From the NCBI GenBank assembly GCA_024276655.1, contig JAJRWU010000135.1:1-37719 (forward strand): a stretch of DNA of 37,719 nt, given 5' to 3'. The translations under genes and the position numbers were made by a program. The notes beneath the pieces are model-generated. The model saw only the letters and a program-made list of their open reading frames with translations, searched no databases and was not told the origin of the DNA. Origin of the DNA: Planctomycetota bacterium (GTDB taxonomy: Bacteria > Planctomycetota > Planctomycetia > Pirellulales > Pirellulaceae). Positions 2,432 to 22,829 of this stretch are shown piece after piece. Every line of letters starts with the position of its first letter. Within the stretch, counting starts at the first letter, position 1.

Positions 2432-2435
2432 CCGT

Positions 2436-3818: not shown

Positions 3819-3854
3819 GATCGACCGCTTTCTATTAGCAACCCATTGTAAAAA

Positions 3855-5228: not shown

Positions 5229-5288
5229 GAAATGGTCCGTCTTAGCGTGATTTCGTTTTTTCGTGAGTTCGGTTGGGGTTTGTTTGAA

Positions 5289-6191
5289 TCACTCGGCGTC
5301 TGGGGCTCGAACCACGACCACTTCGTCGATATTGGGCAGGAGTCCGCCATCGACGGTGCGGCTCACCGATTGCCATTTGAATTGGTTGTCGTCAACGTAC
5401 GAGATAATGTTCACCGACGACGCGCTCCCTCCGTCGGGCAATGTTCCCGTCACGGTAACATACCAATGATTCTCTTTCTTGGTCCAACGTCCTTCGGCGA
5501 AGCCGCCGTCTGAATCGAACACCCAAGAGCGAATTTGCTTGGCTGCCGGGTCCCAGCCGATGACCTGCATGCCGGCCAAATCGATTCGGTTTTGAATCGA
5601 GACGGTAAACGACCGCGTGATGAAGTTTTTGTTTCGGGTCCACTCGCAGGTCGTCTCGATGCGGGCTTGGTCGTCGGCGTCGACCCAGTGGCCGATCATC
5701 CACTCCAATTGTTTGAGTTGCTCGTAGTGCGACGAAACAACCGGGACATCTTCTTCCGTGACGCGGTCCAAAAGCCACTGGCCATCGCGTTTGACATGAA
5801 TCGCGGTGTAGGTGCTTTCTTGCGGCTGGCCATCGGCGGTGATCAATTTGGCGACGCCGTTTTCCACCGCGACGCCGGGAGAAATGAACTGAATCGATTG
5901 CACCTCCACGGCCAACTTGGTCTCCTTCAGTTCCGAGAGAATGGCTTCGAACTCTTTCTCGATCGCTTCCCGTCCCTCGACCTGACTTCCCGTGAGCGGG
6001 TTGATATAAACCGCATCGGGCGACCACCGCGCCGCCAGCGCCTGCGCATCATGAGCGTTGAATGCGGCGGTGTACGATTCGATCGCCTTTTCAATCGCGG
6101 CCCTGTCGGCCGCTTGATCGGCGGCGGATGTAGTTCTCTCGCCGCAGATCATGGTTGCGCAAACGAGCAGGGCGCCCACAAGGTATTTCAT
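5289..6191 (-). CDS. Secreted protein with tandem NTF2-like (SnoaL/DUF4440-type) domains
   Basis: Signal peptide. Two repeats of the NTF2-like pattern (AAIEKAIESYTAAFNAHDAQALAARWSPDAVY... and ...HWVDADDQARIETTCEWTRNKNFI...). Confidence 0.5.
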   Translation of the reverse strand: MKYLVGALLVCATMICGERTTSAADQAADRAAIEKAIESYTAAFNAHDAQALAARWSPDAVYINPLTGSQVEGREAIEKEFEAILSELKETKLAVEVQSIQFISPGVAVENGVAKLITADGQPQESTYTAIHVKRDGQWLLDRVTEEDVPVVSSHYEQLKQLEWMIGHWVDADDQARIETTCEWTRNKNFITRSFTVSIQNRIDLAGMQVIGWDPAAKQIRSWVFDSDGGFAEGRWTKKENHWYVTVTGTLPDGGSASSVNIISYVDDNQFKWQSVSRTVDGGLLPNIDEVVVVRAPDAE

Positions 6192-6317
6192 CGAAGGTCT
6201 CTCTTTCTTTTGTCGAATGTTTGAATTGGTAAGGATCGTTCGAGAATTAGTTGTCCGACTTTGCTTGTACGATGGCCTTGGAAGGCCGTCGTGCAGCGGT
6301 AATTTCCCGCCCGATGT

Positions 6318-7832
6318 TTAACGGACCCGTTCAATTTCTCCCGGCTGCCAGGTTTTGTCAAACCACGACTCCAGGGGGCCGTAGAGGCGAAGAATGGTGT
6401 TCCAACCTTTGCCGGGGACGGTTTGGATCCAGTTGCTCTCCTTGCCTTTTGGCGCCTGGGGGCCGAAATAGATGTCGACCGAGGTGTCTGGGTTGATCAC
6501 GATGCCTTTCTTTTGGCTGCCAAGACTCGGGAATTGCTGGTCGGTTTGTAACATCGAGCGGGTTTGGTTGTCGTACGCCACGATCGACCAAAAATCCTTC
6601 GCGGGAATGCTGGGAGGCAAATGCAGGCGGTAAGTCTTGGCGCCGTCGAACGCGTTGTCATGGGAATCAACAAAAGCGGCGGCGTATTGTGATCCTACGC
6701 CCGCGGGCATTTTTTTGGCCATGGCCGGCGTGATGCCCGTGGCGTAAAAGAGCATGAAGGTCCGCCCATTGAGTATTCGCGCTCCGCCGTCAAGAAATTC
6801 GTGGTTGCCGCCAACGAAGGCGGTTCCCCACGCACTGTTCGGGTAGTACCGCTGGATTTTGTCCGGGTAGCGGAAGGTTAGGGCGCGCGCCGTGGCCGTG
6901 CCGACATTCGCGGCCTCCGCTAGAATTTTCCTCATGCGCGCATCTGGCGCGAACGGCTTGCCTTTTTGAATCCCGATGGAGGCCAGGGCGCCCAGGGTTT
7001 CTGGGTCCATCGCATCGGCGGGCTCATACTGGACAACCGCGTTCACTTCCTCAAAAAAGGCGTAGTCCATTGAATGCAGGGTGTTGAAGGCAATGCCCGA
7101 GGCGTTGGAGAATTTCATCTTGGGTGGATGGTTCTTACTCGCCAAAGGATACGCGCGAAACAGCTTTTTGGTCGCCGCAACCGCGGGCCGAGGGTCGCCG
7201 TCTACTTGGAACCCGCGCCAAACGACCCAGTTGCCGAAAGTGCGAGTACGAGCAACGTGGTAGCCGGCGGGAACGGCGCCATCGTAGCCGGGAGGCAAAA
7301 TGAGAAACTTGCCGCCCTGGCCCTTATCAGGACCCGCGTTGCCGAAGTCGACCACATAGTGAAACCAAGCATCGTAAATAAAACCAAGCACGTTTGGGGG
7401 CGTCTCGATGACCATCGGACCGTTTTTCACATCCAGCCACATCATGCAGTAAATGGAGTCCGTGTTAGCGGTGAGGAACAGGGCCTTGGAGTCCATCAGT
7501 TGCTCAAAGATAACCGCAGATGTGTTGTCGGGGCCGAAGGCGCGAATTCCTTCACGCATGGCATGCAGCGACGCAGCTGGAATGGAGGTCAGAACAGATT
7601 GCACGCCCCGCTGGAAATCGAGGTTGTCCAACACTTTTTTGACGGTTGCATTATCGGGGAAGCCGTCGGTGAACCTCAATGTTCCTAGGCGCGTTTCGAC
7701 GGAGTTCGGCGTCGCGACGCCCGGCGGGATGGGGGTGGTCATCTTCATTTTCGGCGCGGTCTGTGCGTGGACGGTCGCCAGAACAAAAACCAGTGAAATC
7801 GCCAATGAGCCGAATAAAGAACCGTTACGCAT
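6318..7832 (-). CDS. Secreted DUF1254/DUF1214 two-domain protein
   Basis: Signal peptide from MRNGSLFGSLAISLVFVLA. The C-terminal PAKDFWSIVAYD block is typical of DUF1214. Start chosen at the ATG at 7832; the ORF-track start at 7898 is upstream of the signal peptide. Confidence 0.55.
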   Translation of the reverse strand: MRNGSLFGSLAISLVFVLATVHAQTAPKMKMTTPIPPGVATPNSVETRLGTLRFTDGFPDNATVKKVLDNLDFQRGVQSVLTSIPAASLHAMREGIRAFGPDNTSAVIFEQLMDSKALFLTANTDSIYCMMWLDVKNGPMVIETPPNVLGFIYDAWFHYVVDFGNAGPDKGQGGKFLILPPGYDGAVPAGYHVARTRTFGNWVVWRGFQVDGDPRPAVAATKKLFRAYPLASKNHPPKMKFSNASGIAFNTLHSMDYAFFEEVNAVVQYEPADAMDPETLGALASIGIQKGKPFAPDARMRKILAEAANVGTATARALTFRYPDKIQRYYPNSAWGTAFVGGNHEFLDGGARILNGRTFMLFYATGITPAMAKKMPAGVGSQYAAAFVDSHDNAFDGAKTYRLHLPPSIPAKDFWSIVAYDNQTRSMLQTDQQFPSLGSQKKGIVINPDTSVDIYFGPQAPKGKESNWIQTVPGKGWNTILRLYGPLESWFDKTWQPGEIERVR

Positions 7833-8115
7833 GTTGTCTATTCCTTTGATGGGGTGCAATGATCGACCGCTCCACGGGCGAAGAGCTCGAACACACATGC
7901 TGGTTCCGAGGCCGTGAGCGAAAGAGACCGAGAATTGAGAATTTACCGAGTATAGCCGACCGCCTGCGTTAATAGCGCAATTTTCTATCCGGAATTCGGT
8001 AGAAGCGGTAAACCGCGAGATTTGGACGCGTTTCGCTCCATAGAGGATTTGACGGGGCGGCTTCTGAGCAGGCGGAGCCCTGCAAAAGGTGCTCGTTTAA
8101 CAGCTTGGCCCGGAG

Positions 8116-9660
8116 CTACACCCGCAACAATTCTCTTGCCTGATCGCGACCGGGCGCCGGCCAACCGTATTCGCTGGCCGACACGCGAGCCAGACCAATC
8201 AGGTGCCGCCAGCGGAACTCCTCGCGCGTGGTCGGAAATTCCTCCACGACGGTGCGGAAGTATTTTTCGGCATGCAAGGCGCCGTCTTCACTCACCGCGT
8301 AACTCCGCAGGCAATCAAAAATCGGCTTTGAAGGATGCCCGGCCGTCTCCCAACTCTTGACGACCGCCATTGCCTTGGCCTGATCTTTCGATTGAACAGC
8401 CGCGTTCAACTCCGCCATGAGGCCGGCGGCGTCTAGTTTCCGCGACTCGATTGCGGCAACGTCAAATGCAAACGGCGCGTCGGTTGTGTAGCCGGTTTGC
8501 CCGGCCGTGTGCCAAGCGCCGACAATCAAACTGCAAACCTGGTTGCGATGATTCGTAACGCGGGAGATATTTCGCCACGCATTCGCGGCGTCCGAGGCGT
8601 GAACTCCAACGCTGGCGCCGTGCACGCTGTCCTTGGGTTTTTCATCGGAGGCCCATTTCTCCAGACGGCCAGGATCATGCAACACAAGCAAGTTGCCCGC
8701 CAGCGACATCGCTTCACCGATATCTTCGGGCGAAAAACCTTCCGCCAGCGCTGCCGCCGCCGCTTCGGCGGCCTGCTCGCGGGTGGCGGCGAAGAATGTC
8801 TGCGCTAACTGTTCGATCCAAGCCGACTCAGCTTTTCGCGAGCCGATTTTCCGGCCGAGCAGTTTGTATTCATCCAACAATCGCGGCGTCAATTTACGAA
8901 GAGCCGGTTCGGGCTTTTTGCGTTTCAGACGATCTTGTTCTTTTTCAACACAATACCGCACCGACTGCCGAAGCAGGGTGTGGGCGTGTTCGTAGCCCGT
9001 GAGTTGCATCACTTCCCATGCGCGCCAGGCAAGAGTCACGCGGTGTACGTCCGGCGCATCTTGAACGATATGCTGCAAGGCGTTGAACGTGTCTGCACGA
9101 TTTCCTTGTGCGATTGCCGCGAATGTCCTTTCGGTCGACTGCATGTCGGCGGTGCTCATTTCCTTGAACAAGCGTTGGCCGGCATGGCGTTTGTCGGTAA
9201 TCTTGGCTGGCTCGACCGGGTGCAGCCGCTGGCCGCTTCCGGCCGCCTGAATCCTGGCCGTGTTGCGATACAACACCTTGAGGATCGGCAGCGGCTGCTC
9301 GCGTTTTGGCAGCTCCTTCGCAATACGCCAAGCCGGCATGAGCGCCATCATGGTGTGGAAGCCGATGTAGTCCTGCCCGCCAAAACTGCGAGCGTTGGCC
9401 AAGGCGCCGGCGGCAACGAGCGTTTTAAGACCGACGCCGCGATGGAGCTTCTCGACCAAAATCGGCTGGAGTTTCTCGACCGGCGTTTGGTGCATTAAGT
9501 CGACCAGCGGCTCCATCGACCCGAAGGTGAGCGTTTCCGTTTCCTCATTTGCCAGGGCGGTCGAAATTCCCAACTCGGCGGCAAGCGTCGAACCGATGCC
9601 GGCGACCAGCATGCCTTCTCCGACGTTGGACAAAAATCCGCGACGTGAATAATTTTCCAT
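8116..9660 (-). CDS. Tat-signal secreted protein of unknown function
   Basis: Twin-arginine motif SRRGFLSNVGEGMLVAGIG at the N-terminus. GGGAGG RBS 8 nt upstream of the ATG at 9660. No recognisable catalytic motif. Confidence 0.6.
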   Translation of the reverse strand: MENYSRRGFLSNVGEGMLVAGIGSTLAAELGISTALANEETETLTFGSMEPLVDLMHQTPVEKLQPILVEKLHRGVGLKTLVAAGALANARSFGGQDYIGFHTMMALMPAWRIAKELPKREQPLPILKVLYRNTARIQAAGSGQRLHPVEPAKITDKRHAGQRLFKEMSTADMQSTERTFAAIAQGNRADTFNALQHIVQDAPDVHRVTLAWRAWEVMQLTGYEHAHTLLRQSVRYCVEKEQDRLKRKKPEPALRKLTPRLLDEYKLLGRKIGSRKAESAWIEQLAQTFFAATREQAAEAAAAALAEGFSPEDIGEAMSLAGNLLVLHDPGRLEKWASDEKPKDSVHGASVGVHASDAANAWRNISRVTNHRNQVCSLIVGAWHTAGQTGYTTDAPFAFDVAAIESRKLDAAGLMAELNAAVQSKDQAKAMAVVKSWETAGHPSKPIFDCLRSYAVSEDGALHAEKYFRTVVEEFPTTREEFRWRHLIGLARVSASEYGWPAPGRDQARELLRV

Positions 9661-9789
9661 CTCACTTGCCTCCCGAGAAAAGGTAAAGTGATGAAGCACG
9701 GCGCAGCTGTTTCAAAACGCCGCATCCCGACCAATGCATCGTACCACTGAAACACCGCCGCACAAGCTCGTAGGGGAATTCAGAACCTC

Positions 9790-10128
9790 ATGGCCCAACC
9801 TTTTCATGAACAACTGGAACAGCTTGTCCAACGGCATTTGCCGGCAGAGGCGAATTTGGAGTGCCAGCACTTTTTTAGCGGCGCCGCGATGTACGCCGGC
9901 GGCGTCATCTGCGTTTCGCTCACGCCCGTTGGTTTGGCCTTCAAACTACCCGAAGCAATGTGTGCGAAACTCATCGCAGCGGGAGGGGCGGCGCCTTTGA
10001 AATACTTCCCGAAGGCGCCCATCAAAAAGGGGTACGCGCTCTTTGCCAACTGGGAAGAATTGACAAAAACCAAAACCACGAAGTGCTTCCAGCAAGCAGT
10101 GGCGTTTGCGACGCTGAAAAGCGACTGA
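9790..10128 (+). CDS. TfoX N-terminal-domain-like small protein
   Basis: The FFSGAAMYAGGVICVSLTPVGLAFKL segment resembles the TfoX_N core (FGG..Y..G..FA......L.K). Confidence 0.4.
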   Translation: MAQPFHEQLEQLVQRHLPAEANLECQHFFSGAAMYAGGVICVSLTPVGLAFKLPEAMCAKLIAAGGAAPLKYFPKAPIKKGYALFANWEELTKTKTTKCFQQAVAFATLKSD

Positions 10129-10130
10129 AA

Positions 10131-10886
10131 TCATTTTCCAGCCGCCGATTGAACCGGCTTGCGTTTGGTGAACGGCAACAGCATGGGCGTTGTCTGGCGG
10201 TACTGCTCATACGATTCCCCATGCTGCAAGACAAGCTCCCGTTCTTCCAAACGCACGCCAATGAAAATATAAACCGTTGTCACGGCGGCGAAGAGCAAAT
10301 GGCCGACCGTCATATTCGGCGTGGCCCAAAAGGCGATGATGAATCCCAGCATCAAAGGGTGTCGCACCAATCGATAGAGCAGCGGGGTTTGGAAGGGCGC
10401 CGTGGAGGGCTCCTTACCCAGCAGATGCAAAACGACCTGCCGCAAACCGAACAGCTCGAAATGGTCAATGAGAAAGGTGGAATAGAGCACCAAGCCGAAT
10501 CCTGCCGCGAACAACACATGGAAAACGGCGCGGATTCCAGGCGCCTCAACATTCCAAACCGTCGCGGGAATGGGCCGCCATTGCCAATACAACAACGCCA
10601 GAATGGCGGAGGTCAACAATACAAACGTGCTGCGCTCCACAACGGCGGGGATGACGCGAGTCCACCATTGTTTGAACTCGCGCCGGGCCATAATGGTGTG
10701 TTGCACGGCGAAGAGCGCCAACAAAGCCATGTTGACGGCAACCGCCATGGCGAGCGGCGTTTTCGGGCCGGAGTTAATCGTTTTGGGAACGATAAAACCG
10801 CCGAGGAATCCGATCACATACAAAAACACCGCTAGGAAAAACACGTACGCAAAAAGTCCATAAGCAAATGCAGCCAGTCGATTCAT
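10131..10886 (-). CDS. Membrane methyltransferase of the ICMT/PEMT/NnrU family
   Basis: Multi-TM protein with the C-terminal hallmark RHPLMLGFIIAFWATP...GVRLEERELVLQHGESYEQY. ATG at 10886 with a perfect GAGGAG RBS; the ORF-track start at 10979 is upstream of the first TM. Confidence 0.7.
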   Translation of the reverse strand: MNRLAAFAYGLFAYVFFLAVFLYVIGFLGGFIVPKTINSGPKTPLAMAVAVNMALLALFAVQHTIMARREFKQWWTRVIPAVVERSTFVLLTSAILALLYWQWRPIPATVWNVEAPGIRAVFHVLFAAGFGLVLYSTFLIDHFELFGLRQVVLHLLGKEPSTAPFQTPLLYRLVRHPLMLGFIIAFWATPNMTVGHLLFAAVTTVYIFIGVRLEERELVLQHGESYEQYRQTTPMLLPFTKRKPVQSAAGK

Positions 10887-10983
10887 CGCAAACTCCTCAG
10901 GGCATGATCCCTCTGCTCTGTTGTTTATACACAAATGCCCAGAGGCAATGCACGATGGCATTGGAAGGCCATCGTACAATTTA

Positions 10984-11014
10984 GAAGCCCGGCTTTTTGA
11001 AAAAGCCGGGCTTC
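10984..11014. terminator. Palindromic hairpin terminator, family copy 1
   Basis: GAAGCCCGGCTTTTTGAAAAAGCCGGGCTTC is a perfect palindrome, downstream of the minus-strand gene 11069..11572. Confidence 0.6.
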
Positions 11015-11068
11015 TCGCGCGGCCAATTCAGGGTTCAATCGATCCACGCTCTCCACGGCCAAGAATAA

Positions 11069-11572
11069 CTATTGCTCCGATTTGCTCTGTGCGGGCGGCG
11101 GCTTCTTCTCTTCCGTGGACGATTTCTTTTTGGTTTCGGGTTTCGCGGCCGGCCAACGCAGGAATTGCCATCCGGATGACGGAATGAGTCGGGAATCGAT
11201 CGGTATCAAACGCCCGTCGTTGTTCTGGTCGTAGGCCATGATGCCCGAAAGCCGAACGTCCGCGTCGTGTCCGAGAACGAGAACTTTTTGATCTTTTTTG
11301 CGAACCAGCAAGATAGCACCGCCGCCATCGCCCGACTGGAGCGTCACGGCCCGCTTGCCGTCGCTATCGAATAGCTCCAAAATGCCGCCCCCGACCATGC
11401 TTTCACCCAGCACGAACCGGGGTTTTTCAAACGGCGTCTGCACGACCAATTCCCGACAAACAACGCGTTGGAACGTCGACTGACCGTTGGCGGCGTCCCA
11501 TTTGGTTTTGATTCCCAGGGAAAGCGAAAAAAACAATAGCGGATATAATATCCAACGCTCACGATCCGACAT
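11069..11572 (-). CDS. Hypothetical signal-anchored protein
   Basis: ORF with an N-terminal hydrophobic segment and a Lys/Pro-rich C-terminus. No known motifs. Confidence 0.45.
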   Translation of the reverse strand: MSDRERWILYPLLFFSLSLGIKTKWDAANGQSTFQRVVCRELVVQTPFEKPRFVLGESMVGGGILELFDSDGKRAVTLQSGDGGGAILLVRKKDQKVLVLGHDADVRLSGIMAYDQNNDGRLIPIDSRLIPSSGWQFLRWPAAKPETKKKSSTEEKKPPPAQSKSEQ

Positions 11573-11861
11573 AACGCTAACACTCCCAGGCTGTTTCCAC
11601 CGCCGTGTATGATTTCACCAGATACAAACGCCAACAAAACTGGTTTCCGAGCGAGATGACGTTCCCGCTTCCGTGTTCGTTATATCTGCCTCCAGCGTTG
11701 CTATGCGAGCCCTGGCTTGAGGATTTTGGTTCGGAAACCGGCCGCGCCGCCGAAATATGGGAATAGAGCACGGCTGAGGCCAATACTCTCGACCCCAGCA
11801 CGAAGTGTTGCACAGACAAGCCCAACAGCCTGGCCCGAATTCGCCCTCATCGCAAAAAACA

Positions 11862-12533
11862 ATGGAAGACCACATCCCCCGTCTGGGCGAACCCGAGCCA
11901 TTGCCTGAACGCCGCAGATGGCGGTGGCGTTTCAGCTTACGCACGCTCTTCGCGATGGCTTTGATTGCGGGCGCGGCGCTCGGCTGGTTGGGCGTTCGCT
12001 ACGAGCGCGCTCGGCGCACCTCACAGTTGGTTGAAGAGCTAACGCGGCTCGGCGCCACGGTCAGATTCGGCGACGGCGAAGTGGTGCAAGTATCGTTTTC
12101 GGGAACGGGATATCGAGCCGACGCCCTGGCGAAACTCGCTGCGTTTCCCCGCCTCAAAAGGTTGGTCTTCCTCGACACCGCACTCGACGACAAAGCGTTC
12201 GCACAGGTGGCCGCCTGCACGCAACTCGAAGAACTTTTAGTCATGGACGCAAACCTCTCCGACAACGCAGCGGTGCTTCTCCGCCGCCTCAACAACCTCA
12301 CCGTACTCTGGCTCAACGCGACCAACATCTCGGACGCCGGCCTGCAAAATCTGCAAGGCTTGAAAAAATTGCGGCGTCTGGATCTCATCGACGCGCACAT
12401 CACCGATGCGGGCTTGCCGGCGTTGGCTGAGTTGCCTCTTTTGGAAAAGCTCTATTTGCGGGGTTCTCAAGTGACGGCCGAAGGCGTCAACACGCTGCAG
12501 CAGGCCAATCCCGAATTGAAAATCGATTGGTGA
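11862..12533 (+). CDS. Membrane-anchored leucine-rich-repeat protein
   Basis: Arg-rich N-terminus, then a TM segment (RRRWRWRFSLRTLFAMALIAGAALGWL), then LRR units (L..L.L..T.ITDAGL). Start at the ATG at 11862. Confidence 0.65.
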   Translation: MEDHIPRLGEPEPLPERRRWRWRFSLRTLFAMALIAGAALGWLGVRYERARRTSQLVEELTRLGATVRFGDGEVVQVSFSGTGYRADALAKLAAFPRLKRLVFLDTALDDKAFAQVAACTQLEELLVMDANLSDNAAVLLRRLNNLTVLWLNATNISDAGLQNLQGLKKLRRLDLIDAHITDAGLPALAELPLLEKLYLRGSQVTAEGVNTLQQANPELKIDW

Positions 12534-12743
12534 GCCGCGCCGCAAAGGATCTTCCCGCCGCTTGTCCAACACGCCGCCGCCCGCGGCTTGCCGTCAAACG
12601 AGCCATCGGCAACGAATGCATATCGCCGCGCCGCCAACTATTATGAAGTTTTAATGAAGAATTCCGCTGTTGGCCTCTTTCGACTGGGAAGCAAGCACAC
12701 TTCGAGTGATAATTGGGAGCTATCCTTATATAAACGGCGTTAC

Positions 12744-12866
12744 CTAAGCATCGAGCGGAAAGTTAGTGTCGTGGCCATGCTCGCCAGAGATATGGTTCAC
12801 CGCTCACCCACCGTCTGGCGACGATGGCTACACAAATGCGACAGTTATTTATCGAGCGGTGCTAAG
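12744..12866 (+). mobile_element. ~125-bp hairpin repeat element, copy 1, in the 5' leader of the alkaline phosphatase gene
   Basis: Near-identical to 22687-22812 and to the reverse complement of 14641-14767. Subterminal direct repeats ATCGAGCGG, a long central imperfect hairpin (GTGGCCATGCTCGCCAGAG...GTCTGGCGACGATGGCTAC), and 5-bp CTAAG direct repeats on both flanks. Confidence 0.7.
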
Positions 12867-12920
12867 GTTTCGCCCGTTTGTTTTCTCACCGCTTCCCTAT
12901 CATCCAACTTCGAAAGCACA

Positions 12921-14630
12921 ATGCATCGATCTCTCCACGCCGCCTGCTGCATGGCGATTCTCGTCGGTTCGTTGTTTTCCCCGTCTTCGGTTTTGGCGGG
13001 CGAGCCGGATCGCATCCGCGAGATTCAAACCGCCGCCGTGTTGCAAGGCGTCAGCCCGATCGCGCATTGGGGCGCCGACCCGGCGAAGTACACGGCTTGG
13101 GGTTCGCATTCGAATCGTTTGATTCCCGTTTATACCTTCGGCACGCGGGGCGGCGGCGGCGGTGTGGATTTGAAAAGTTACCTGGGCCGAAACAGCGCGT
13201 ACCGCAGCCAAAAGGCACTGGAAAAAATCTATGGCAAGCTTCCTTCGCATACGCTGAATCCTGAAGCCGACTACGGCGATCAAACCAATCTGGCCGACTT
13301 GCAACGGGCCGCCGTGGCGGCGGGCAAAAAGCACGTTTTTCTGGTCGTGTTCGATGGGATGGATTGGCAAACCACGCGCGCCGCGGCGATCTACGCAACG
13401 GGCCGCATCGGCTACCACGCGGGTCGCGGCGTCGGTTTGCACATCCAGAATTACAGCGCCGATGGAACCTCGCAATTCGGTTTTGTCGTTACCTCGCCGC
13501 AGTTGAGCGGCGTTAAATCCGACCCCGACAAACAAGTGTTGCTCAACCCCGGCAGCGGCGCCCCAGGCGGTTACAACGCTAAAAAAGCCGGCCCCAATCC
13601 CTGGACGCCCGGCAACGACGTCTACTACTTGATCGGCCGAAATGCGGAAAATACCCAACCGGGCGAGCATGTGTATGCCGACTCGGCGGGCACGGCCACT
13701 GCGTTGTGTACGGGCGTAAAAACGTACAACGGTGCGATTTGCGTGGCGGCCAACGGAGAGAAAACACCGGCCATTGCTCATGGCTTACAAAGCCAGGGTT
13801 GGGCGGTCGGCGCCATTTCCAGCGTGCCGATCAGTCATGCGACGCCAGCCGCTTCCTACGCACAGGACGTCAGCCGACACGACTACCAAGACCTCACCCG
13901 CGACATGCTCGGCTTGGCTTCGGCTTCCCACCCGGAGCATCCGCTGCCGGGGCTCGACGTGCTCATTGGCGGCGGCTGGGGCGTCGACAAGAAAACCGAT
14001 CCTGGCCAGGGCGGCAACTTTATTCCCGGCAATCGTTACATAACCCAGGTCGATTCGCGGGCGGTCGATGCACGGGTCGGCGGAAAGTACGTGGTGGTGC
14101 AGCGCGAGCCAGAGCGAAATGGCGCCAACGCGCTCGCCAACGCGACCGCGCGAGCCGTGAAATCGGACAGCCGACTCTTGGGCGTCTTTGGCGTGGCCGC
14201 GTATGGGGGGCATCTTCCTTTTCAAACAGCCAACGGCGATTACCAACCGGCGCCGGGGCGGAGCAAAAAAGCCGAAGAGTATTCGCCCGCCGATATCGCG
14301 GAAAACCCCACGTTGGCTCAAATGACGACCGCCGCAATTACTGTTTTGAACCACCGAGCGAAGCAGCGGAAATCGAATAAGTTCTGGTTGATGGTCGAAG
14401 CCGGCGATGTCGATTGGGCCAATCACGACAACAACCTCGACAACTCCATCGGCGCCGTGCTCAGCGGCGACGCCGCCGTGCGCGTGATCACGGACTGGGT
14501 GGAAGCGAATAGCAATTGGCATGACTCACTGCTCATCGTCACGGCCGATCATGGTCATTTCCTCCATCTTCTCGACCCCGCCGCGCTGGCCACCGCCTCG
14601 CCCGAAGCCAAAAAAACCGCGGCAAAGTAG
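12921..14630 (+). CDS. phoA: Secreted alkaline phosphatase (PhoA family)
   Basis: Signal peptide from the ATG at 12921. Motifs FLVVFDGMDW, DSAGTATAL (active-site Ser) and TADHGH. The ORF-track start at 12588 runs through the repeat element and is unlikely. Confidence 0.8.
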   Translation: MHRSLHAACCMAILVGSLFSPSSVLAGEPDRIREIQTAAVLQGVSPIAHWGADPAKYTAWGSHSNRLIPVYTFGTRGGGGGVDLKSYLGRNSAYRSQKALEKIYGKLPSHTLNPEADYGDQTNLADLQRAAVAAGKKHVFLVVFDGMDWQTTRAAAIYATGRIGYHAGRGVGLHIQNYSADGTSQFGFVVTSPQLSGVKSDPDKQVLLNPGSGAPGGYNAKKAGPNPWTPGNDVYYLIGRNAENTQPGEHVYADSAGTATALCTGVKTYNGAICVAANGEKTPAIAHGLQSQGWAVGAISSVPISHATPAASYAQDVSRHDYQDLTRDMLGLASASHPEHPLPGLDVLIGGGWGVDKKTDPGQGGNFIPGNRYITQVDSRAVDARVGGKYVVVQREPERNGANALANATARAVKSDSRLLGVFGVAAYGGHLPFQTANGDYQPAPGRSKKAEEYSPADIAENPTLAQMTTAAITVLNHRAKQRKSNKFWLMVEAGDVDWANHDNNLDNSIGAVLSGDAAVRVITDWVEANSNWHDSLLIVTADHGHFLHLLDPAALATASPEAKKTAAK

Positions 14631-14640
14631 TCCTGACCCG

Positions 14641-14767
14641 CTAAGTACCGCTCGATAAATAACGGTCGCATTTGTGTAGCCATCGTCGCCAGACGGTGGG
14701 TGAGCGGTGAACCATCCCACGCTCTGGCGAGCATGGCTACGACACTTATTTTCCGCTCGATGCTAAG
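14641..14767 (-). mobile_element. ~125-bp hairpin repeat element, copy 2, inverted, 10 bp downstream of the phoA stop
   Basis: Reverse complement matches copies 1 and 3. Flanked by CTTAG on both sides. Confidence 0.7.
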
Positions 14768-14895
14768 AGTCTATCCGGAAATTGGTCTGGCGGTAAATCG
14801 TTGATTTCACGAGACTTGGCGTTGTTTGTCCTCTGCGCCCGCAAAGGAATGCGTGATATCCGGATCCCGTCCGTCTCGAAAAATGTACTACCGAT

Positions 14896-15228
14896 TTGAC
14901 CGAACAGCAGTGGTCGTTGATTCAGGCCTTGTTGCCCTCGCCAAAGAATCGCCAAGGAGGACGGCCCCGCACCGTTGCGATGCGGGAAGTCGTCAACGCA
15001 ATCATGTATCTCAATCGCACAGGCTGCCAGTGGGACATGCCGCCTCACGATTTGCGCCCTAAAATAAAAGTACTGTCTACGATTACTTCGCACAGTGTGG
15101 CGCGACGACGGAACCAGGACCGCCATTGTCACGGCGCTTCGCGAGCAGATTCGCGTTCAGGAAGGTCGCCTATCGACCCCCAGCGCCGCCTGCATCGACA
15201 GCCAATCCATCAAGACCACCGGCTAATG
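14896..15228 (+). pseudogene. IS5-family (DUF4096 N-terminal type) transposase remnant, frameshifted and truncated
   Basis: MTEQQWSLIQALLPSPKNRQGGRPRTVAMREVVNAIMYLNRTGCQWDMPPHDL matches the IS5/IS4-family transposase N-terminus. Two frameshifts are needed to read TVYDYF and WRDDGT...SAACIDSQSIKTTG. The DDE domain is absent. It ends abutting a copy of the TIR-type repeat. Confidence 0.7.
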
Positions 15229-15253
15229 GCTGGCAAGCCTCCGGCTTGGCGGG
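15214..15253 (+). repeat. Family-2 repeat end (GACCACCGGCTAATGGCTGGCAAGCCTCCGGCTTGGCGGG) at the transposase remnant
   Basis: Homologous to the inverted ends of the element at 33233-33435, to 20085-20151 (reverse complement) and to 166-191. The homology continues about 45 bp further, shared with rc 20030-20084. Confidence 0.6.
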
Positions 15254-15285
15254 AATTTCAACACACCATTGCACGGAATATCTCT

Positions 15286-15341
15286 TGGACAGCGCCTAAC
15301 TGGACAGCTCCTAACTGGACAGCTCCTAACTGGACAGCGCC
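15286..15341. repeat. 15-bp tandem repeat TGGACAGCKCCTAAC, about 3.7 copies
   Basis: Seen directly. Encodes the NWTAPNWTAPNWTAP run in a spurious ORF. Confidence 0.8.
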
Positions 15342-15429
15342 AGGTTCTCCGTTTTTCAGATATGTTGTGGTCCAGTTTGACGTGCTATCACAACATGCTG
15401 TGGTTTTTCTGGAAGATGGCGCTGTTCAG

Positions 15430-15699
15430 CTAAGCCGCCAGCCGCACCGGCTTTTGTTCCTCGAACAAATTCACGGTGCGCAACATGGCGCCGTCTTCGT
15501 CGTAGAATTGCAGCAGGCCGACGTCGATCATCCACATGGCCATGAAATCGCCGCAGCGGTAGGAATGAGCGCGAACCTTGCCGCTATCGACCAGGAATGT
15601 CTCGGCGACGCCGCCGGGCATTGCCACATCGGCGCCCAATTCGAGAAAGGTGCGGGCGACAATCAGTTTCACTTCGTGAGAAAAAGGGGCGACTCTCAT
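15430..15699 (-). CDS. Hypothetical small protein (89 aa)
   Basis: ORF with an ATG start. A small palindrome GCAATATCCTTATTGC overlaps the start region. No known motif. Confidence 0.35.
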   Translation of the reverse strand: MRVAPFSHEVKLIVARTFLELGADVAMPGGVAETFLVDSGKVRAHSYRCGDFMAMWMIDVGLLQFYDEDGAMLRTVNLFEEQKPVRLAA

Positions 15700-16140
15700 T
15701 TCGCAATATCCTTATTGCATAATGGCTGGCGGCGTCCTGCCGCGAATAGCCTGGTAGTGTAGCAACAAGGCGTTTCCACACCTAGAACAGTTGTGCATCG
15801 CCTACGAGTGTTATCGTCGGTGCAACGGTCGGTCATCGCGAGAATGCGTTTGCCCGTCTCAAAACGGAGAATTGATCCATTTTCCGCGCTAAGACGGCTG
15901 AAAACCGTGTTGAACGCGAAGGATACGCAAAACAGGAGCAACAGGAAGGATTTGCGGAATTCAAAAGATAGTGCAGTTGAAGAGGATTGCCGGCCGTGCG
16001 GCATCTGTTCGGCGCGTCGCTGAAGCAGGCCGATGGCGGGATGCCGCCTCAGGCGTTATGATGTTGGCGTACCTCCGAAAGGAAGGCCGGCCAGGGTAGG
16101 CCGGCCTCTATCCCGCTCCCCCTCGAATCTCAACAGAATC

Positions 16141-16449
16141 ATGGCGCGTAAAGTCGTAAATCGAAAGGCCCTTAGGGAAGAAGCCGAAGCCGCCGAACGC
16201 GCTGAAAAAGAGGAGGGCGGCGTCAAGAAAAAGAAGAAAAAAAAGGCCAAACGAAAAAGTCGCGCCAAGGCGGCGGCGGAAGTGCGGCTCAAACTCTTCT
16301 GGGGGGTGTACAATCAGTCGCTCAAACGGGTGGCGATGTTTGAGTTTGATCAAAAAAAAGAAGCCGAAAAGAAGGCGGAAGTGCTGGGTAAATCCGGCAA
16401 GTCGCCCCACTTTGTGCAACGCGTGAAAGAAGTGATTGTGGAAGAGTAG
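16141..16449 (+). CDS. Small Lys/Glu-rich protein of unknown function
   Basis: ATG at 16141. Poly-Lys tract KKKKKKKAKRK, then a conserved-looking C-terminal domain. Followed by a terminator hairpin. Confidence 0.4.
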   Translation: MARKVVNRKALREEAEAAERAEKEEGGVKKKKKKKAKRKSRAKAAAEVRLKLFWGVYNQSLKRVAMFEFDQKKEAEKKAEVLGKSGKSPHFVQRVKEVIVEE

Positions 16450-16461
16450 CCGGGTTTGCTT

Positions 16462-16562
16462 AGAAAGTGTGGAACCATTAAATCCTGAATGGACGTTCGA
16501 GAAGCCCGGCTTTTTCAAAAAGTCGGGGTTCTGAACCGGGAAGTAGTTTTTCCACACTTTCT
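16462..16562. repeat. ~100-bp element bounded by 13-bp perfect inverted repeats (AGAAAGTGTGGAA / TTCCACACTTTCT), enclosing terminator copy 2
   Basis: Inverted repeats at 16462-16474 and 16550-16562. Hairpin GAAGCCCGGCTTTTTCAAAAAGTCGGGGTTC at 16501-16531. Confidence 0.5.
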
Positions 16563-16641
16563 TACTTGGCCAATTGGCGCGTCAATAAATAAGTCAACTT
16601 GATCGAGTGCTTGGAAGCACCTGCCATGGAAACTTGCGGCC

Positions 16642-19600
16642 ATGGAAACTCAGACGCTGCTCGAGTACCTCGATTCGTTTGCACGGGCTAAGCCCTGGCT
16701 TCAGTCTTTGGGCGTGGCCGATCTTGAGCGGGCGCACGCGAACCTCGTTTCATTCAGCCGCAGCGGCCTGACGACCGACCTTGCCGCCGTGTTGGCCGAC
16801 CAATTGGCCGAGCATTTGCCGGGCGTCAGCGATCCCGACATGGCGCTCAACAACCTGGACCGCTACCTCGCCGCGGCCCGCAATCCGCTCTCGGTGGGAG
16901 CGTTGTTTGAGCGCGACGCGGAAGCCCTGCCCACGCTGCTGCAAATTCTTTCGTCGAGCCAGTATCTGGCGGACGTTTTAGTGCGCGACCCCGCCGGCTT
17001 TGAACTGGTGCGTCTGACCGATGGCGCGCCGCTGGCCAAGCCCGTTCTGGTTGACGAACTATGCGCCGAAGTGATCATGCTCGACGACGAAGCGGCGGCG
17101 TTGTTGGCGTTGCGGCGGTTCAAACATCGGGAAACCATGCGCATCGCCTTCGGCGATATTGTCCGCCGGCAAAACATCGAAACCGTCACGCGTCAAATCT
17201 CTTATTTGGCCGAAGCGATTTGCGAGGCCGCATTGCGGTTTGTCTATAAAAAACTGGCCGCCAAGCGGGGCCAGCCTCGTTCGGACGACGGTTCTCCGGC
17301 TCGATTTGTGGTCCTCGCGTTGGGCAAGTTGGGCGGCCGTGAATTGAACTATTCCAGTGACATTGATCTGATTTTTCTCTGTGAGGAAGCCGGTTCGACC
17401 GACGGCGCGCGCCCGGTTGCCAATTCGGAGTTTTTTGAACGTTTGGCTCGCGGACTGATCAAATTGCTGTCCGAGTCGACCGAGCTTGGCGCGGCCTACC
17501 GCACCGATATGCGGCTTCGGCCCGATGGCCGCCAAGGCCCGATTGTCATCGATTGGAAAGCCGCCTTGCGGTATTACGATGTCAAGGGCCGCACCTGGGA
17601 ACGGCAGGCGTTTGTCAAGGCTCGGCCCATCGCCGGAGATTTGGAACTGGGTGAAATGTTCCTTTCGCAGTTGGAGCCCTGGGTTTATCGGCGTTATCTG
17701 AACCGGGCCGATATCACTGGAATCAAAGCGCTGAAACGCCGCATTGAAAAACGAAATCTGACCGAAGGCGGCGAGTTCACTGACGTCAAAACCGGCCAAG
17801 GCGGCATCCGAGATATCGAATTCGCGATCCAATTTCTCTTGCTGCTCAACGGCGGCGATTTACAAAAGATCCGCACCGGCAATACGCTGGAGGCCATCGA
17901 GCGTTTGGAGCAGGCCGGTTGCCTGACCATGCAAGAGCGCACGCTGCTAACGCGGAATTACGAGTTCTTGCGGCGTGTTGAACATCGTTTGCAAATCATG
18001 TTCGACCTACAAACGCACTCGCTGCCCAGCCACGCCGATGAGCTGCGCAAGATCGCCTTGCGGCTGGGAGGCGTCGATACGGAGCACACAACGGCGCTCG
18101 AGGCCTTTCAGGAAGAGTATCGTACGAAGACGGCCGAGAACCGAAAAATTCTTGATCATCTTCTGCACGACGCCTTCGGCGGAGAAGAAAAAATCGCGCA
18201 AGAGGTCGACCTAGTGCTCGACCCCGACCCGCCAGAACACATCATCCAGAAAGTGCTCGCGCCGTACGGATTCTCCGACGTGCCAGCCGCCTATGTCAAT
18301 TTGATGGCCTTGGCCGATGAGAAAATCCCCTTCCTCTCGACGCGCAGGTGCCGGCATTTCCTGGCTTCCATAGCGCCGCAGTTGCTCGAAGCGATTTCGG
18401 CTTCGCCCGATCCTGATTCCGCGCTGCTCAATCTTAGCGCCGTAAGCGATTCGGTGGGCGGCAAGGGCGTGTTGTGGGAGCTGTTCAGTTTCAACGCGCC
18501 GTCGCTGTTGCTGTACGTGCAACTCTGTGCGACCAGCCCTTATTTGTCGCACATTCTGACCAGCAACCCCGGCATGATCGACGAACTCATGGACTCGCTC
18601 GTCTTGGCGAAGTTGCCTTCCCGCGAAGCCTTGGAACGAAATTTGGCGGAGTTGTGCCAAGGCGCCGAAGATATCGAACCCATACTGCATAGCTTCAAAA
18701 GTTCTCAGCACTTGCGCGTCGGCGTGCGAGATATTCTCGGCAAGGACGATGTACAAACGGCGCATCAAACGTTGTCCGATATCGCCCAAGTCTGTTTGGC
18801 GCAAGTCGCGCGTATCGAATACGAGAAACTCACAACTCGGTTCGGGCGCCCCATGCTCGAAGGCGGCCACGATCCCTGCGAGTTGATCATTCTCGCCATG
18901 GGGAAGCTGGGCGGACGCGAACCCAATTATCATAGCGATCTGGATGTTGTCTTTCTGTACGAGGCGGAAGGACAAACGCAACCGCTCGGCGCCCAACGCG
19001 CCGACCGTATCACCACCAACCAGCATTTCTTCAGCCAACTGGCTCAGAAAATCACCAAGGTGATTACCAAACGCGGGCCCTATGGACGCCTCTACGAACT
19101 CGACGCACGGCTACGCCCGACCGGAAAAAGCGGCGCCTTGGCGGTTTCGTTACCCGAATTCTCCCGCTATTTTTCCGATCGCCGCGGACAACTCTGGGAG
19201 CGGCAGGCGCTTTGCAAGGCGCGCGTGGTTTATGGCTCGGCGAACGTGCAAGCGATCACCATGCAAGCGGTGCGGCAGGCCATCACCACGCAACCCTGGA
19301 CCGACGCCTGTCGCCAAAAAATCCACGACATGCGCATGCGGTTGGAGGAAACCGCCGCGCGGGGAAACTTGAAACGCGGCCGGGGCGGAACGGTCGATAT
19401 CGAATTCATCGTGCAAATGCTGCAACTCAAGTACGCTCGGCAATCGCCGGAGGTGCTCCAACCGGGAACGCTCGCGGCGCTCGACCAACTGCTGAAGGCG
19501 AACCATATTAGCGCCGATGATCACGAATACCTCCGCAAGGCGTATCGGTTTTTGCGGAGTGTTGAAGCGCGGCTGCGTTTGATGGACACCTCCGCCCGGC

Positions 19601-19743
19601 ACGACCTGCCGCACGACGAACTGGAGTTGCGTAAACTTGCCTACCTCCTAGGCTACGCCAACGCCCAAGACCTGCTCACCGGCTGCGGTGCCTATTTAGA
19701 AGAGAACCGCCGCCGCTTCGAGCGATTTTTTGGAACAGCGTGA
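16642..19743 (+). CDS. glnE: Bifunctional glutamine synthetase adenylyltransferase / adenylyl-removing enzyme
   Basis: Two nucleotidyltransferase domains with LGKLGGRELNYSSDIDLIFL and MGKLGGREPNYHSDLDVVFLY. Size (1033 aa) and architecture fit GlnE. Confidence 0.85.
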   Translation: METQTLLEYLDSFARAKPWLQSLGVADLERAHANLVSFSRSGLTTDLAAVLADQLAEHLPGVSDPDMALNNLDRYLAAARNPLSVGALFERDAEALPTLLQILSSSQYLADVLVRDPAGFELVRLTDGAPLAKPVLVDELCAEVIMLDDEAAALLALRRFKHRETMRIAFGDIVRRQNIETVTRQISYLAEAICEAALRFVYKKLAAKRGQPRSDDGSPARFVVLALGKLGGRELNYSSDIDLIFLCEEAGSTDGARPVANSEFFERLARGLIKLLSESTELGAAYRTDMRLRPDGRQGPIVIDWKAALRYYDVKGRTWERQAFVKARPIAGDLELGEMFLSQLEPWVYRRYLNRADITGIKALKRRIEKRNLTEGGEFTDVKTGQGGIRDIEFAIQFLLLLNGGDLQKIRTGNTLEAIERLEQAGCLTMQERTLLTRNYEFLRRVEHRLQIMFDLQTHSLPSHADELRKIALRLGGVDTEHTTALEAFQEEYRTKTAENRKILDHLLHDAFGGEEKIAQEVDLVLDPDPPEHIIQKVLAPYGFSDVPAAYVNLMALADEKIPFLSTRRCRHFLASIAPQLLEAISASPDPDSALLNLSAVSDSVGGKGVLWELFSFNAPSLLLYVQLCATSPYLSHILTSNPGMIDELMDSLVLAKLPSREALERNLAELCQGAEDIEPILHSFKSSQHLRVGVRDILGKDDVQTAHQTLSDIAQVCLAQVARIEYEKLTTRFGRPMLEGGHDPCELIILAMGKLGGREPNYHSDLDVVFLYEAEGQTQPLGAQRADRITTNQHFFSQLAQKITKVITKRGPYGRLYELDARLRPTGKSGALAVSLPEFSRYFSDRRGQLWERQALCKARVVYGSANVQAITMQAVRQAITTQPWTDACRQKIHDMRMRLEETAARGNLKRGRGGTVDIEFIVQMLQLKYARQSPEVLQPGTLAALDQLLKANHISADDHEYLRKAYRFLRSVEARLRLMDTSARHDLPHDELELRKLAYLLGYANAQDLLTGCGAYLEENRRRFERFFGTA

Positions 19744-20084
19744 GAGAGCCGCCGCAAAGTGGCTTAGCCCACTCGCCGCCCGATAAAGCCGCGACGGCGA
19801 TCATGCCTTTCTCGTCGTTCACCGAAATCCGCGCCACGTACACGAGTGTGGGAACATTCCGTAAGACACCCTACCGCAGTGAACTGACCGATGCGAGAAT
19901 CCGCTCGCCATTCATGCATACAATCGGCTTGATACCCTTCGGCATCGCATGGCTCGCGTTCTCTCCGCTGGTGTTGTTGCTTCAAATGTTGCCGCAGCGC
20001 AACTCGAAAACGCATGTGGCTGATTAGCAAGGCAAGACGCCTGCCCAGGATCTGTTCCGTGCAACGGTGTTAGGAGATCTCCGC

Positions 20085-20200
20085 CAAGCCGGAGGCTTTG
20101 ACAGCCATGAGCCGGTGGTCGAGCACGGCGAACACCACCGGTAGGCCAACGCAACGAACGATGCATCCCGGCGGGGATGTCAGTGCCCTTGGAATAAGAA
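20085..20200 (-). repeat. Family-2 repeat, partial copy (one end plus the internal CCGGTGGT...ACCACCGG hairpin)
   Basis: The reverse complement aligns to 15214-15300. The internal part aligns to 33238-33350 (CATGAGCCGGTGGTCGAGCACGGCGAACACCACCGG ... CATCCCGGCGGGGATG). Confidence 0.55.
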
Positions 20201-20500
20201 AAGGGCTGTTTTCCGGGGCCGCCGACAGCGCACCGTCCTTCCCGCGTGGTCCTCTATCTCGACGTTCTTCAGTTCGAGGCTCACGCGTTGGGAGTCGGAG
20301 AACAAAACGGCAACCGTTCACGGCGCTGCGAGAAATTGCGATAACGATCTATCCCACCGATCAAACACCCATGCCAATTGCAAACCGCACCGCAAGGTTC
20401 GCTCGCTCTTTCGGCAGCGTGGTAGTCGGTATTGTGGGCGGCGGCGGCGGCGGTTACTATCTCCGCCGAAGTGTTAAGCATCATTTCCCCTGAGGCCGCC

Positions 20501-21436
20501 ATGTTTCAGCAAACCATTCCCGACGAGCACGTTCTGGGGCAGTACATTCCGTTGCACTACCATTACAACATGCTGCTGGATCAGGCTCGGATGTCGAGTT
20601 TTCGCGATGCGATCGAGTATCTGACGCCGCCGGGCGCCAAAGTCTTGGATTTGGGCGGCGGAACGGGCGTGTTATCGCACTTTGCAGCCAGCAAGGCGGG
20701 CCATGTTTGGTGCGTGGAACGAAACCCCGAGTTGGTTCGGACCGCCCGCCGGCTGATGCGGCACAATCCGTTTGGGCATCGGGTTGAGGTCATCCAGGCT
20801 GACGCAATGGAGTATCTTCCGCCCGAGCCGGTCGATGTTGTCATTTGTGAAATGTTGCACACCGGACTGATGCGCGAAAAGCAAATTCAGGTAATCGGCT
20901 CATTTCAAGAGCGTTATCTGGCGCACTTCGGCGGTCCGTTGCCGCGTTTCGTTCCAGAGGCTTCGTTGCTTGCGGTGCAGCCGGTGGAGCAGCCGTTTGA
21001 ATTTTCGGGGTTTTCGGCGCCCATTCCATTTTTTCAAGACTCGGGCGGCAACCATGAGCAAACGCGAGGGCTCTGCCAACCGCTCGTATACGCCGCGGTT
21101 GAATACGATCGTGCGTTGCCCGAGCGGTTCGAGGGTCGGACCAAGTTCTCCATGGAACGCAGCGGCCAATTGAACGCTTTACGGTTTATTACCAAGAACC
21201 TGCTGGCCTTTCAGGAGTCGGAAGGCTCGGCCATTGAGTGGTCGAACCAGTACCTAGTGGTTCCTCTCCGGCAAACGTTCGACGTTGCCGCGGGCGCCGA
21301 GATTGTGGTCGAATTCTCTTACGGCGCTGGCTGCCAGTTGGAAGAGTTGCTGGATTCAGCCCAAGTGATTCCGCTTTCGCAATGGGGAGCGATTCCCTCA
21401 GACCGCCACACCGCCGCCGAGCGCCGGGCAGCGTAA
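20501..21436 (+). CDS. Protein arginine N-methyltransferase (PRMT)-like class I SAM-dependent methyltransferase
   Basis: PRMT pre-motif I signature YIPLHYHYNMLLDQARMSSFRDAI (YF..Y..H..ML.D..R...Y..AI). Motif I VLDLGGGTGVLS. Double-E loop region VVICEMLHTGLMRE. ATG at 20501. Confidence 0.65.
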   Translation: MFQQTIPDEHVLGQYIPLHYHYNMLLDQARMSSFRDAIEYLTPPGAKVLDLGGGTGVLSHFAASKAGHVWCVERNPELVRTARRLMRHNPFGHRVEVIQADAMEYLPPEPVDVVICEMLHTGLMREKQIQVIGSFQERYLAHFGGPLPRFVPEASLLAVQPVEQPFEFSGFSAPIPFFQDSGGNHEQTRGLCQPLVYAAVEYDRALPERFEGRTKFSMERSGQLNALRFITKNLLAFQESEGSAIEWSNQYLVVPLRQTFDVAAGAEIVVEFSYGAGCQLEELLDSAQVIPLSQWGAIPSDRHTAAERRAA

Positions 21437-21483
21437 AAAGCCGTGGAGTAATGGTTACCGATTATGATGCGGAAAAGCCCGGC

Positions 21484-21512
21484 ATTTTCAAAATGCCGGG
21501 CTCATGATTCGA
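21484..21512. terminator. Palindromic hairpin terminator, family copy 3, shared by the convergent PRMT-like and csrA genes
   Basis: AAAAGCCCGGCATTTTCAAAATGCCGGGCT. Confidence 0.6.
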
Positions 21513-21539
21513 CCAATAAATTTCGCTCGGTACCTACTA

Positions 21540-22812: not shown

Positions 22813-22829
22813 CCGAACGCCGGATCCGC

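Follow-up and report, generated by a model that had tools for sequence, protein, structure and literature searches.

Why does the alkaline phosphatase gene phoA of the Planctomycetota bacterium contig JAJRWU010000135.1 (GCA_024276655.1; Pirellulaceae) lie between two inverted copies of a short hairpin-forming repeat, and is the gene part of what the repeat moves? We analyzed the whole 37,719-nt stretch on its forward strand, here called the window, which holds a third copy of the repeat beyond phoA. A sequence-only reading of this DNA had taken the repeat for a small non-autonomous mobile element that might make phoA a composite, mobilisable or invertible cassette or might have a regulatory or terminator function, with a structured non-coding RNA as the alternative. 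Comparison with a close relative makes it close to certain that the repeat is a mobile, non-autonomous element that has moved recently, and indicates that phoA is older at this locus than the copies beside it.

The three near-identical elements, previously estimated at ~125 bp, were recovered by independent repeat detection, and alignment refined their boundaries to 115-119 bp. Copy 1 (115 bp, 12748-12862, + strand) lies 58 nt upstream of the phoA ATG, copy 2 (119 bp, 14645-14763, - strand) 14 nt past the phoA stop codon, and copy 3 (119 bp, 22691-22809, + strand) between convergent open reading frames (ORFs), beginning 4 nt past the stop of ORF 22111-22686 and ending 20 nt short of the stop of ORF 22830-23264(-). 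All three are intergenic, share 91-97% mutual identity and have no coding content, the ORFs that run across them being frame-open artefacts only. Repeat detection paired 14639-14767 with 22687-22815 (129 nt, 95% complementary), 12792-12865 with 22739-22812 (97% identical) and 12740-12789 with 22683-22732 (92% identical). The similarity begins and ends abruptly at common columns, both in a three-way alignment and in a seven-way alignment of the window copies with four copies from the relative described below (six complete, one incomplete).

All 13 observed ends of the seven aligned copies abut TAA or TTA (TWA, with W being A or T). In the window the triplet is TAA throughout, at 12745-12747 (a putative target-site duplication) and 12863-12865 around copy 1, at 14642-14644 (the phoA side) and 14764-14766 around copy 2, and at 22688-22690 and 22810-22812 around copy 3. 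The element had been described as flanked on both sides by CTAAG or CTTAG, read as a 5-bp duplication of a CTNAG target. The TAA or TTA is indeed present at every end, but the right flank of copy 3 is CTAAC, with C rather than G after the triplet, and a full 5-bp match is found in only three of the six complete copies. The G of the CTAAG at 14763-14767, moreover, is the first base of an adjoining insertion sequence (IS) remnant, with which copy 2 has its outer TAA in common. The first G and last C of the element are invariant in the seven aligned copies, whilst the bases beyond the flanking triplets vary (left: C, C, C, T, C, G; right: G, G, C, A, G, C, C). We therefore define the element as G...C and the flank as the 3-bp TWA, giving termini TWA|GCATCGAGCGG... 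and ...CGAGCGGTGC|TWA. A duplication of TA, of the IS630/mariner type, was considered and rejected, as it would require the element boundaries to be shifted. The central base of the flank varies among near-identical copies and is the same on left and right in five of the six complete copies, where chance would give about half. On the phoA side of copy 2 the pentamer is CTAAG in the window and already CCAAG in the relative, so that it derives from the target. Overall, the alignments point to a 3-bp TWA flank with a loose preference for C-TWA-G, of which the duplication itself is weakly shown.

The relative that permits this comparison is the metagenome-assembled genome (MAG) Planctomycetaceae bacterium SZUA-33 (QIKY01), which by protein searches is the closest available (phoA product 93% and GlnE 98% identical). 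The exact phoA protein of the window had no database entry, and the relative was reached by way of its homologs. A scan of genome contigs with an exact 20-mer from the element listed matches at four SZUA-33 loci (L003, L005, L008 and L009) and at six loci from other Planctomycetota (L001, L002, L004, L006, L007 and L010, belonging to Pirellulaceae and other Pirellulales MAGs, a second Planctomycetaceae MAG and Aeoliella straminimaris). The latter carry the repetitive extragenic palindrome (REP) that we describe below, and the requirement for an exact match biases which REPs appear. Among the matches listed, the full element is found outside the window only in SZUA-33. That genome has at least four copies (the one in L005 cut by the contig end), all at loci without a counterpart in the window, and their identity is 94-97% to copies 2 and 3 of the window and 89-93% to the decayed copy 1. 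At the corresponding positions, all three window sites are unoccupied in SZUA-33. The contig of SZUA-33 that carries phoA (L011) matches window 318-14646 in the same order at about 88-96% identity, and the element is missing from both phoA-flanking sites: the block matching 11069-12737 resumes as 12898-14646, the bases that follow copy 1 on its right (GTTTCGCCCGTTTG...) directly adjoining the upstream block, and homology ends at 14646. Copy 3 is missing from the contig that carries glnE (L018), which is collinear with window 15430-22664. The flanks shared by the two genomes are ~91-97% identical and the insertion sites are entirely different. Since the window's sites are empty in SZUA-33 and the SZUA-33 copies lie elsewhere, the element has transposed in both lineages since their divergence. 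The view of the repeat as a small non-autonomous mobile element thus gains the further copies and empty sites in a relative that were suggested as its check. More distant searches added nothing to this distribution: a metagenome scan with an element-specific 20-mer gave two unrelated chance matches only, and no match was found in a plasmid collection (blastn with the element) or in a viral-contig collection (REP pattern).

What, then, of phoA? The gene (12921-14630, + strand) encodes a 569-residue alkaline phosphatase with a signal peptide (Pfam PF00245, Alk_phosphatase, 5.3e-40). Its placement between the copies stands as first described, including the 10 nt from its stop codon to the former boundary of copy 2 (14641), except that the distance from the former boundary of copy 1 (12866) to the ATG is 54 nt rather than 55. 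A 680-residue ORF (12588-14630) that reads through copy 1 into phoA was set aside as an open-frame artefact, the gene call of the ortholog starting downstream of the element site. Inverted copies 1.8 kb apart that bracket exactly one gene could be taken to form a single unit with it, either a composite transposon or an invertible cassette that switches expression. The composite transposon is contradicted by SZUA-33, where the phoA ortholog (P0001 in L011, 93% amino acid identity) keeps its syntenic place and orientation behind the same leucine-rich repeat gene although both elements are missing, and each window copy has its own pair of TWA flanks. The two copies also differ in age. Copy 1 is 89-93% identical to the other copies and its left REP unit has decayed by a 4-nt deletion and substitutions; for copy 2, identity to copy 3 and to the SZUA-33 copies is 95-97%. 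Judged from this decay and lower identity copy 1 is the older, implying separate insertion events. We consider a cassette highly improbable, and the proposal of a composite or mobilisable phoA unit falls away. Homologous recombination between the 119-bp inverted repeats is physically possible, but nothing in the data shows such an inversion. Because phoA is syntenic in L011 without the elements, copies 1 and 2 are, on the comparative evidence, independent later insertions, and phoA is a resident gene, ancestral at the locus and not cargo.

Residence of phoA leaves the question of whether the copies act on it. With a conserved upstream block (...TTATATAAACGG) on one side of it and the phoA ATG on the other, copy 1 could sit in the phoA 5' leader; copies 2 and 3 could form 3' hairpins, and a regulatory effect is possible. 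A stronger proposition is that the repeat serves the host first of all as a cis-regulatory or structured RNA element, such as a terminator, mRNA stabiliser or leader, that is conserved for this function and has merely the look of mobile DNA. The predicted hairpin on the element strand is strong, the G-T pairs of its REP stems favour one strand, copies 2 and 3 come right after stop codons and copy 1 is in a 5' region, all of which would suit such a role. Against it, Rfam searches at gathering and permissive thresholds returned no relevant family for the element, and consensus scans found neither a sigma-70 promoter nor the T-tract of an intrinsic terminator within it. The copies lie both ways round with respect to the transcribed strand, both strands fold, copy 1 is decaying, and all three sites are polymorphic for presence in the comparison with the close relative. 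The Rfam result, the two orientations, the folding of both strands and the polymorphic presence also disfavour a dedicated structured non-coding RNA, and the possibility that relatives carry this sequence as an ordinary conserved untranslated region at phoA is contradicted by the L011 locus, which is without it. A primary host function thus appears very unlikely. Any effect on phoA would be a by-product of insertion and not the cause of the copies' placement.

The element has a modular organization. From left to right it comprises the TWA flank, a 23-nt left end (GCATCGAGCGGAAAATTAGTGTC), a top-strand REP, a 17-nt spacer, an inverted REP, a 31-nt right end closing with ...CGACCGTTATTTATCGAGCGGTGC, and the second TWA flank. 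The ends form an imperfect 24-nt terminal inverted repeat: the left end is GCATCGAGCGGAAAATTAGTGTCG, the right end in reverse complement is GCACCGCTCGATAAATAACGGTCG, and the two are identical at 16 of 24 positions in register, with 0 of 5000 shuffles as good. The subterminal direct repeats noted earlier are also present. The 9-mer ATCGAGCGG occurs six times in the window (0.77 expected), five of these inside elements, and the right-hand repeat of copy 3 is the variant ATCGAACGG.

The long imperfect central hairpin described before is supported by predicted RNA folding of the element strand well beyond shuffled sequences (-50.6, -54.9 and -55.9 kcal/mol; z -3.9 to -5.6; 0 of 200 shuffles as good) and by DNA folding (-28.4 kcal/mol, z -4.3), and resolves into two 24-nt REP units placed head-to-head, 17 nt apart, with their GTAG ends outward. 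The top-strand REP is GTAG-CCATGCTC-GCCA-GAGCGTGG; its inverted partner reads CCACCGTC-TGGC-GACGATGG-CTAC on the top strand and GTAG-CCATCGTC-GCCA-GACGGTGG on the bottom strand. The consensus GTAG-CCAYSSTC-GCCA-GASSGTGG has an unpaired 5' GTAG, an 8-bp stem and a 4-nt loop. The units lie at about 12771-12790 (left, decayed) and 12808-12831(-) in copy 1, at 14676-14699(+) and 14717-14740(-) in copy 2, and at 22714-22737(+) and 22755-22778(-) in copy 3. Single units are predicted to fold alone at -6.3 to -6.8 kcal/mol, and the two units of a doublet can form 16 of 20 inter-REP pairs. At two stem positions one unit has a GC pair where the other has CG, a compensatory change that keeps each small hairpin intact and produces two internal loops in the long one. 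The survey by Di Nocera et al. 2013 (PMC3733652) defines the GTAG-tagged REP and its head-to-head dimer, and by this signature the core of the element is a GTAG-tagged REP doublet.

This signature raises the question of which part of the element is the mobile unit. If it were the doublet, the repeat would be a REPIN or bacterial interspersed mosaic element (BIME) copied by a tyrosine HUH transposase, either a REP-associated tyrosine transposase (RAYT) or a TIR-associated one (TIRYT), acting on single-stranded hairpins; one TWA would then be a target motif and the other the element's own cleavage motif, with no true duplication. Much about the core agrees with this. It is a textbook self-folding dimer of GTAG-tagged REPs with compensatory CG<->GC stem changes between units, its conservation exceeds that of the ends, and the direct orientation of the subterminal repeats is what recognition of a single strand would predict. 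TAA stands on one side and TTA on the other in three of eight elements. The identical 24-mer occurs in several other Planctomycetota genomes without the ends of the element, and for the planctomycete Rhodopirellula baltica and for Pseudomonas the literature (PMC3733652) reports GTAG REPs, numerous tyrosine transposase genes and chimeric REP/stem-loop repeats. Elsewhere in the listed matches, for which an exact 20-mer was required, the 24-nt REP GTAGCCA(C/T)CGTCGCCAGACGGTGG is identical or one to two bases off across several Planctomycetota families, a conservation that would be remarkable on this sampling. These REPs are intergenic and stand without element ends, either as inverted doublets with 20-48-nt spacers (L001, L007 and L010) or as tandem units (L002 and L004).

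In the lineage of the window, however, the REPs behave differently. All 13 REP units in about 91 kb of its DNA examined lie within element copies, with no solo REP or bare REPIN in that span, and conservation and the common boundary run 23 and 31 nt outside the REPs, up to the TWA, so the doublet itself does not delimit what moves. In the seven-way alignment the right-hand W is not correlated with element subfamily, which runs counter to a cleavage motif belonging to the element. No RAYT (Y1, PF01797) was found in the window or among the ORFs beside the REPs at the six other loci, which are ordinary genes, although this is a small sample. Finally, the same ends occur on elements that have no REP. 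A relaxed search for the terminal motifs with TWA outside found further small elements with this type of end and unrelated interiors. One at L003 890-1007 has no REP, and another, a probable distant relative of about 85 bp at window 6233-6317 (+), reads TAA|GGATCGTTCGAGAATTAG ... CCCGCCCGATGT|TTA around a different core hairpin; its boundaries are less certain. The right-hand TTA of this element is the stop codon of ORF 6318-7898(-), and its core hairpin (ACGATGGCCTTGGAAGGCCGTCGT) recurs inverted at 10949-10979. Single ends of the type lie at L003 1333, L018 103 and L011 453, and the L018 contig begins inside a related element. The ends come in two variants, GSACCGYTCG and CATCGRGCGG, with the studied element and 6233-6317 each having one of each. 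The ends are thus the common denominator and, as they carry differing cores, are presumably what a transposase recognizes. We accordingly regard mobilization by a RAYT or TIRYT as unlikely, though it is the main rival of the mechanism that we favour below.

A candidate for the type of transposase lies next to copy 2. An IS remnant at 14767-15226 (+) starts at G14767, straight after the copy 2 TAA, with the left inverted repeat GAGTCTATCCGGAAATTGG and a frameshifted DUF4096/DDE transposase (DUF4096, 2.7e-17) that is cut after ...DSQSIKTTG. Its homologs are 62-73% identical and have PF13340 and PF01609 in two frames (orfA/orfB). At three homologous loci (L014-L016) inverted repeats GAGKYTATCCGGAAA are found at the corresponding position; the IS in L014 is intact, with a length of about 990 bp, 19-bp perfect inverted repeats and TTA/TTA flanks, whilst that in L016 is flanked by TAA and TGA. 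The IS1031 group, with a DUF4096 N-terminus and DDE_Tnp_1 in two overlapping frames, a length of about 0.85-1 kb and inverted repeats that start with GA, inserts at TNA with a 3-bp repeat (PMC12016507). From its sequence the remnant is a member of this group of the IS5 family, on criteria read largely from the homologs since the window copy is truncated and frameshifted. The element resembles the group in its putative TNA target with a possible 3-bp duplication and in ends that start with G. Compared in register, the left inverted repeat of the remnant and the left end of the element agree at 15 of 24 positions (shuffle p about 6e-4). The element differs from it in having no transposase, in ends that are only distantly similar, and in that no full-length parent was found in the loci examined. 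The transposase of the remnant is a candidate relative of the mobilizing enzyme.

Taking these observations together, the explanation that we favour, and that we hold to be somewhat better than an even bet, is that the element is a miniature inverted-repeat transposable element (MITE) mobilized in trans by a TNA-duplicating DDE transposase of the IS5 family (IS1031-like), of which the identity of the enzyme is the step we infer. Because the element starts with G and ends with C, its entry into a C-TWA-G site would recreate C-TWA-G at both junctions. This would make adjacent insertions likely and would explain why the IS and copy 2 meet at a common TAA. The REP doublet would be cargo or a captured module, and the source of the long hairpin.

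Several observations weigh against mobilization by such an enzyme. The terminal 9-mers (ATCGAGCGG) are direct and not strictly inverted repeats. The agreement of left and right flanks in five of six copies has a p of about 0.11, as only TAA and TTA occur, and the three elements with TAA on one side and TTA on the other are L009, L003 890-1007 and window 6233-6317. The empty sites in L011 and L018 are too diverged to display a clean single TWA, the orthologous intergenic DNA having indels of its own (a 19-bp tandem duplication and an insert of roughly 100 nt). The left inverted repeat of the IS remnant matches the element right end at only 10 of 24 positions, and no autonomous element with these exact termini was found in the loci examined. 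In a classical MITE the transposase-bound ends are the best-conserved part. Here the REP core has one variable column in 65 and the end modules 10 in 54 (p = 0.002, with decayed copy 1 left out), the reverse of that pattern, which suggests that the REPs are under selection or take part in recognition.

The strong conservation of the core also enters a further explanation, in which the element is a chimera of the two kinds of mobile DNA. A REP doublet is normally tied to a domesticated tyrosine transposase. In the element, such a doublet may have been captured between DDE-type MITE ends and now spread only as a passenger. The element would then belong to a modular planctomycete family, with interchangeable hairpin cores between identical asymmetric ends, and its core would be conserved through a function of the hairpins at the level of the host or of transposition and not by drift. 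We see this as a tentative but serious minority possibility.

Compared with known systems, the element resembles bacterial MITEs such as ERIC/IRU (about 127 bp), Correia/NEMIS, RUP and Nezha. It shares with them a length of about 120 bp, within the limit of about 300 bp for such elements, the lack of coding sequence, imperfect terminal inverted repeats, a long hairpin that involves the whole element, multiple intergenic copies near gene ends, short A/T-rich flanking repeats and polymorphic presence. It departs from them in having no sequence similarity, in its Planctomycetota host, in a 3-bp TWA flank rather than TA, in an interior REP doublet that is better conserved than the ends, and in its direct terminal 9-mers. 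With REPINs and BIME-1 it has in common two inverted head-to-head GTAG REPs with a short spacer, outer conserved motifs, a size within about 100-145 bp and an intergenic location. Unlike these, its mobile unit reaches to TWA-bounded inverted-repeat ends that REP-less elements also carry, no RAYT was seen at the loci examined, and its REPs occur only inside the element in this lineage. The units themselves match the GTAG REP super-family (Di Nocera et al. 2013, PMC3733652), whose members join a 5' GTAG to a short-looped hairpin with an 8-bp G+C-rich stem; G-T pairs, stem variants that complement each other and head-to-head dimers with 20-100 bp between units are further points in common. GTAG REPs have already been reported in a planctomycete, as the R. 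baltica families GTAG-20 and GTAG-21 (PMC3733652). Compared only through the peptides listed there for R. baltica REPs inside ORFs, GTAGCCAYSSTCGCCAGASSGTGG and the R. baltica REPs do not correspond, and on this peptide comparison GTAGCCAYSSTCGCCAGASSGTGG looks like a different family. MITEs, REPs and REPINs, and IS1031-type ISs are all well known; a REP doublet within TWA-flanked inverted-repeat ends that are common to REP-less elements is modestly novel.

For annotation, these results account for three intergenic repeats of the window and correct both the over-reading of phoA as a cassette and the frame-open artefact, whilst leaving knowledge of phoA function unchanged. More generally, the element offers a test case for whether REPs can spread without a tyrosine transposase of their own and for how MITE cores are exchanged.

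A break in synteny coincides with copy 2 and the IS remnant. It lies at window 14646-15430 relative to SZUA-33, in which a major facilitator superfamily (MFS) transporter gene comes after phoA (L011) and a DHQ-synthase-like gene comes before the glnE block (L018). As copy 2 and the remnant sit exactly at this breakpoint, the IS may have taken part in the rearrangement. The same interval holds a piece of another repeat family and three tandem units of CTAACTGGACAGC(G/T)C at about 15297-15340.

Other repeats are present in both genomes. About 262 nt at window 19895-20155 are missing from L018 (about 6691-6699) and are flanked by the 9-bp direct repeat GA(C/A)CGATGC, so that the segment looks like another insertion. 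It holds pieces of the second repeat family, which also occur at 166-197, 15214-15292, 33236-33274 and 33401-33435. In the opposite direction, SZUA-33 has long palindromic inserts that are missing from the orthologous sites of the window (L018 6830-6952 and 8119-8286; L003 around 1400-1600), one of which contains GTGCTTCGTGCTCTTCGCGTCCTTCGTGGTGAAC together with its reverse complement; these point to further hairpin mini-element families with polymorphic presence. The lineage appears to carry several active hairpin mini-element families, which mark the 14646-15430 breakpoint and coincide with the ends of some MAG contigs (L005 and L018).

The palindrome AAAAGCCCGGCATTTTCAAAATGCCGGGCTTTT, 33 nt long and perfect or nearly so, occurs five times in the window (10983-11015, 16500-16532, 21473-21505, 28625-28657 and 36353-36385), in gaps between predicted ORFs, and resembles a bidirectional terminator. 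Some of its copies share up to 62 nt, and one abuts the element copy in L009. At the window edge, a group II intron match (RF00029, 52.7 bits against a gathering threshold of 40) lies at 37579-37657(-), and a 54-nt direct repeat that is 83% identical (36721-36774 and 37523-37576) ends beside it. Finally, three tandem 57-nt units at 4791-4967, 79-89% identical, lie inside ORF 3855-5228(-) and would specify a 19-residue protein repeat.

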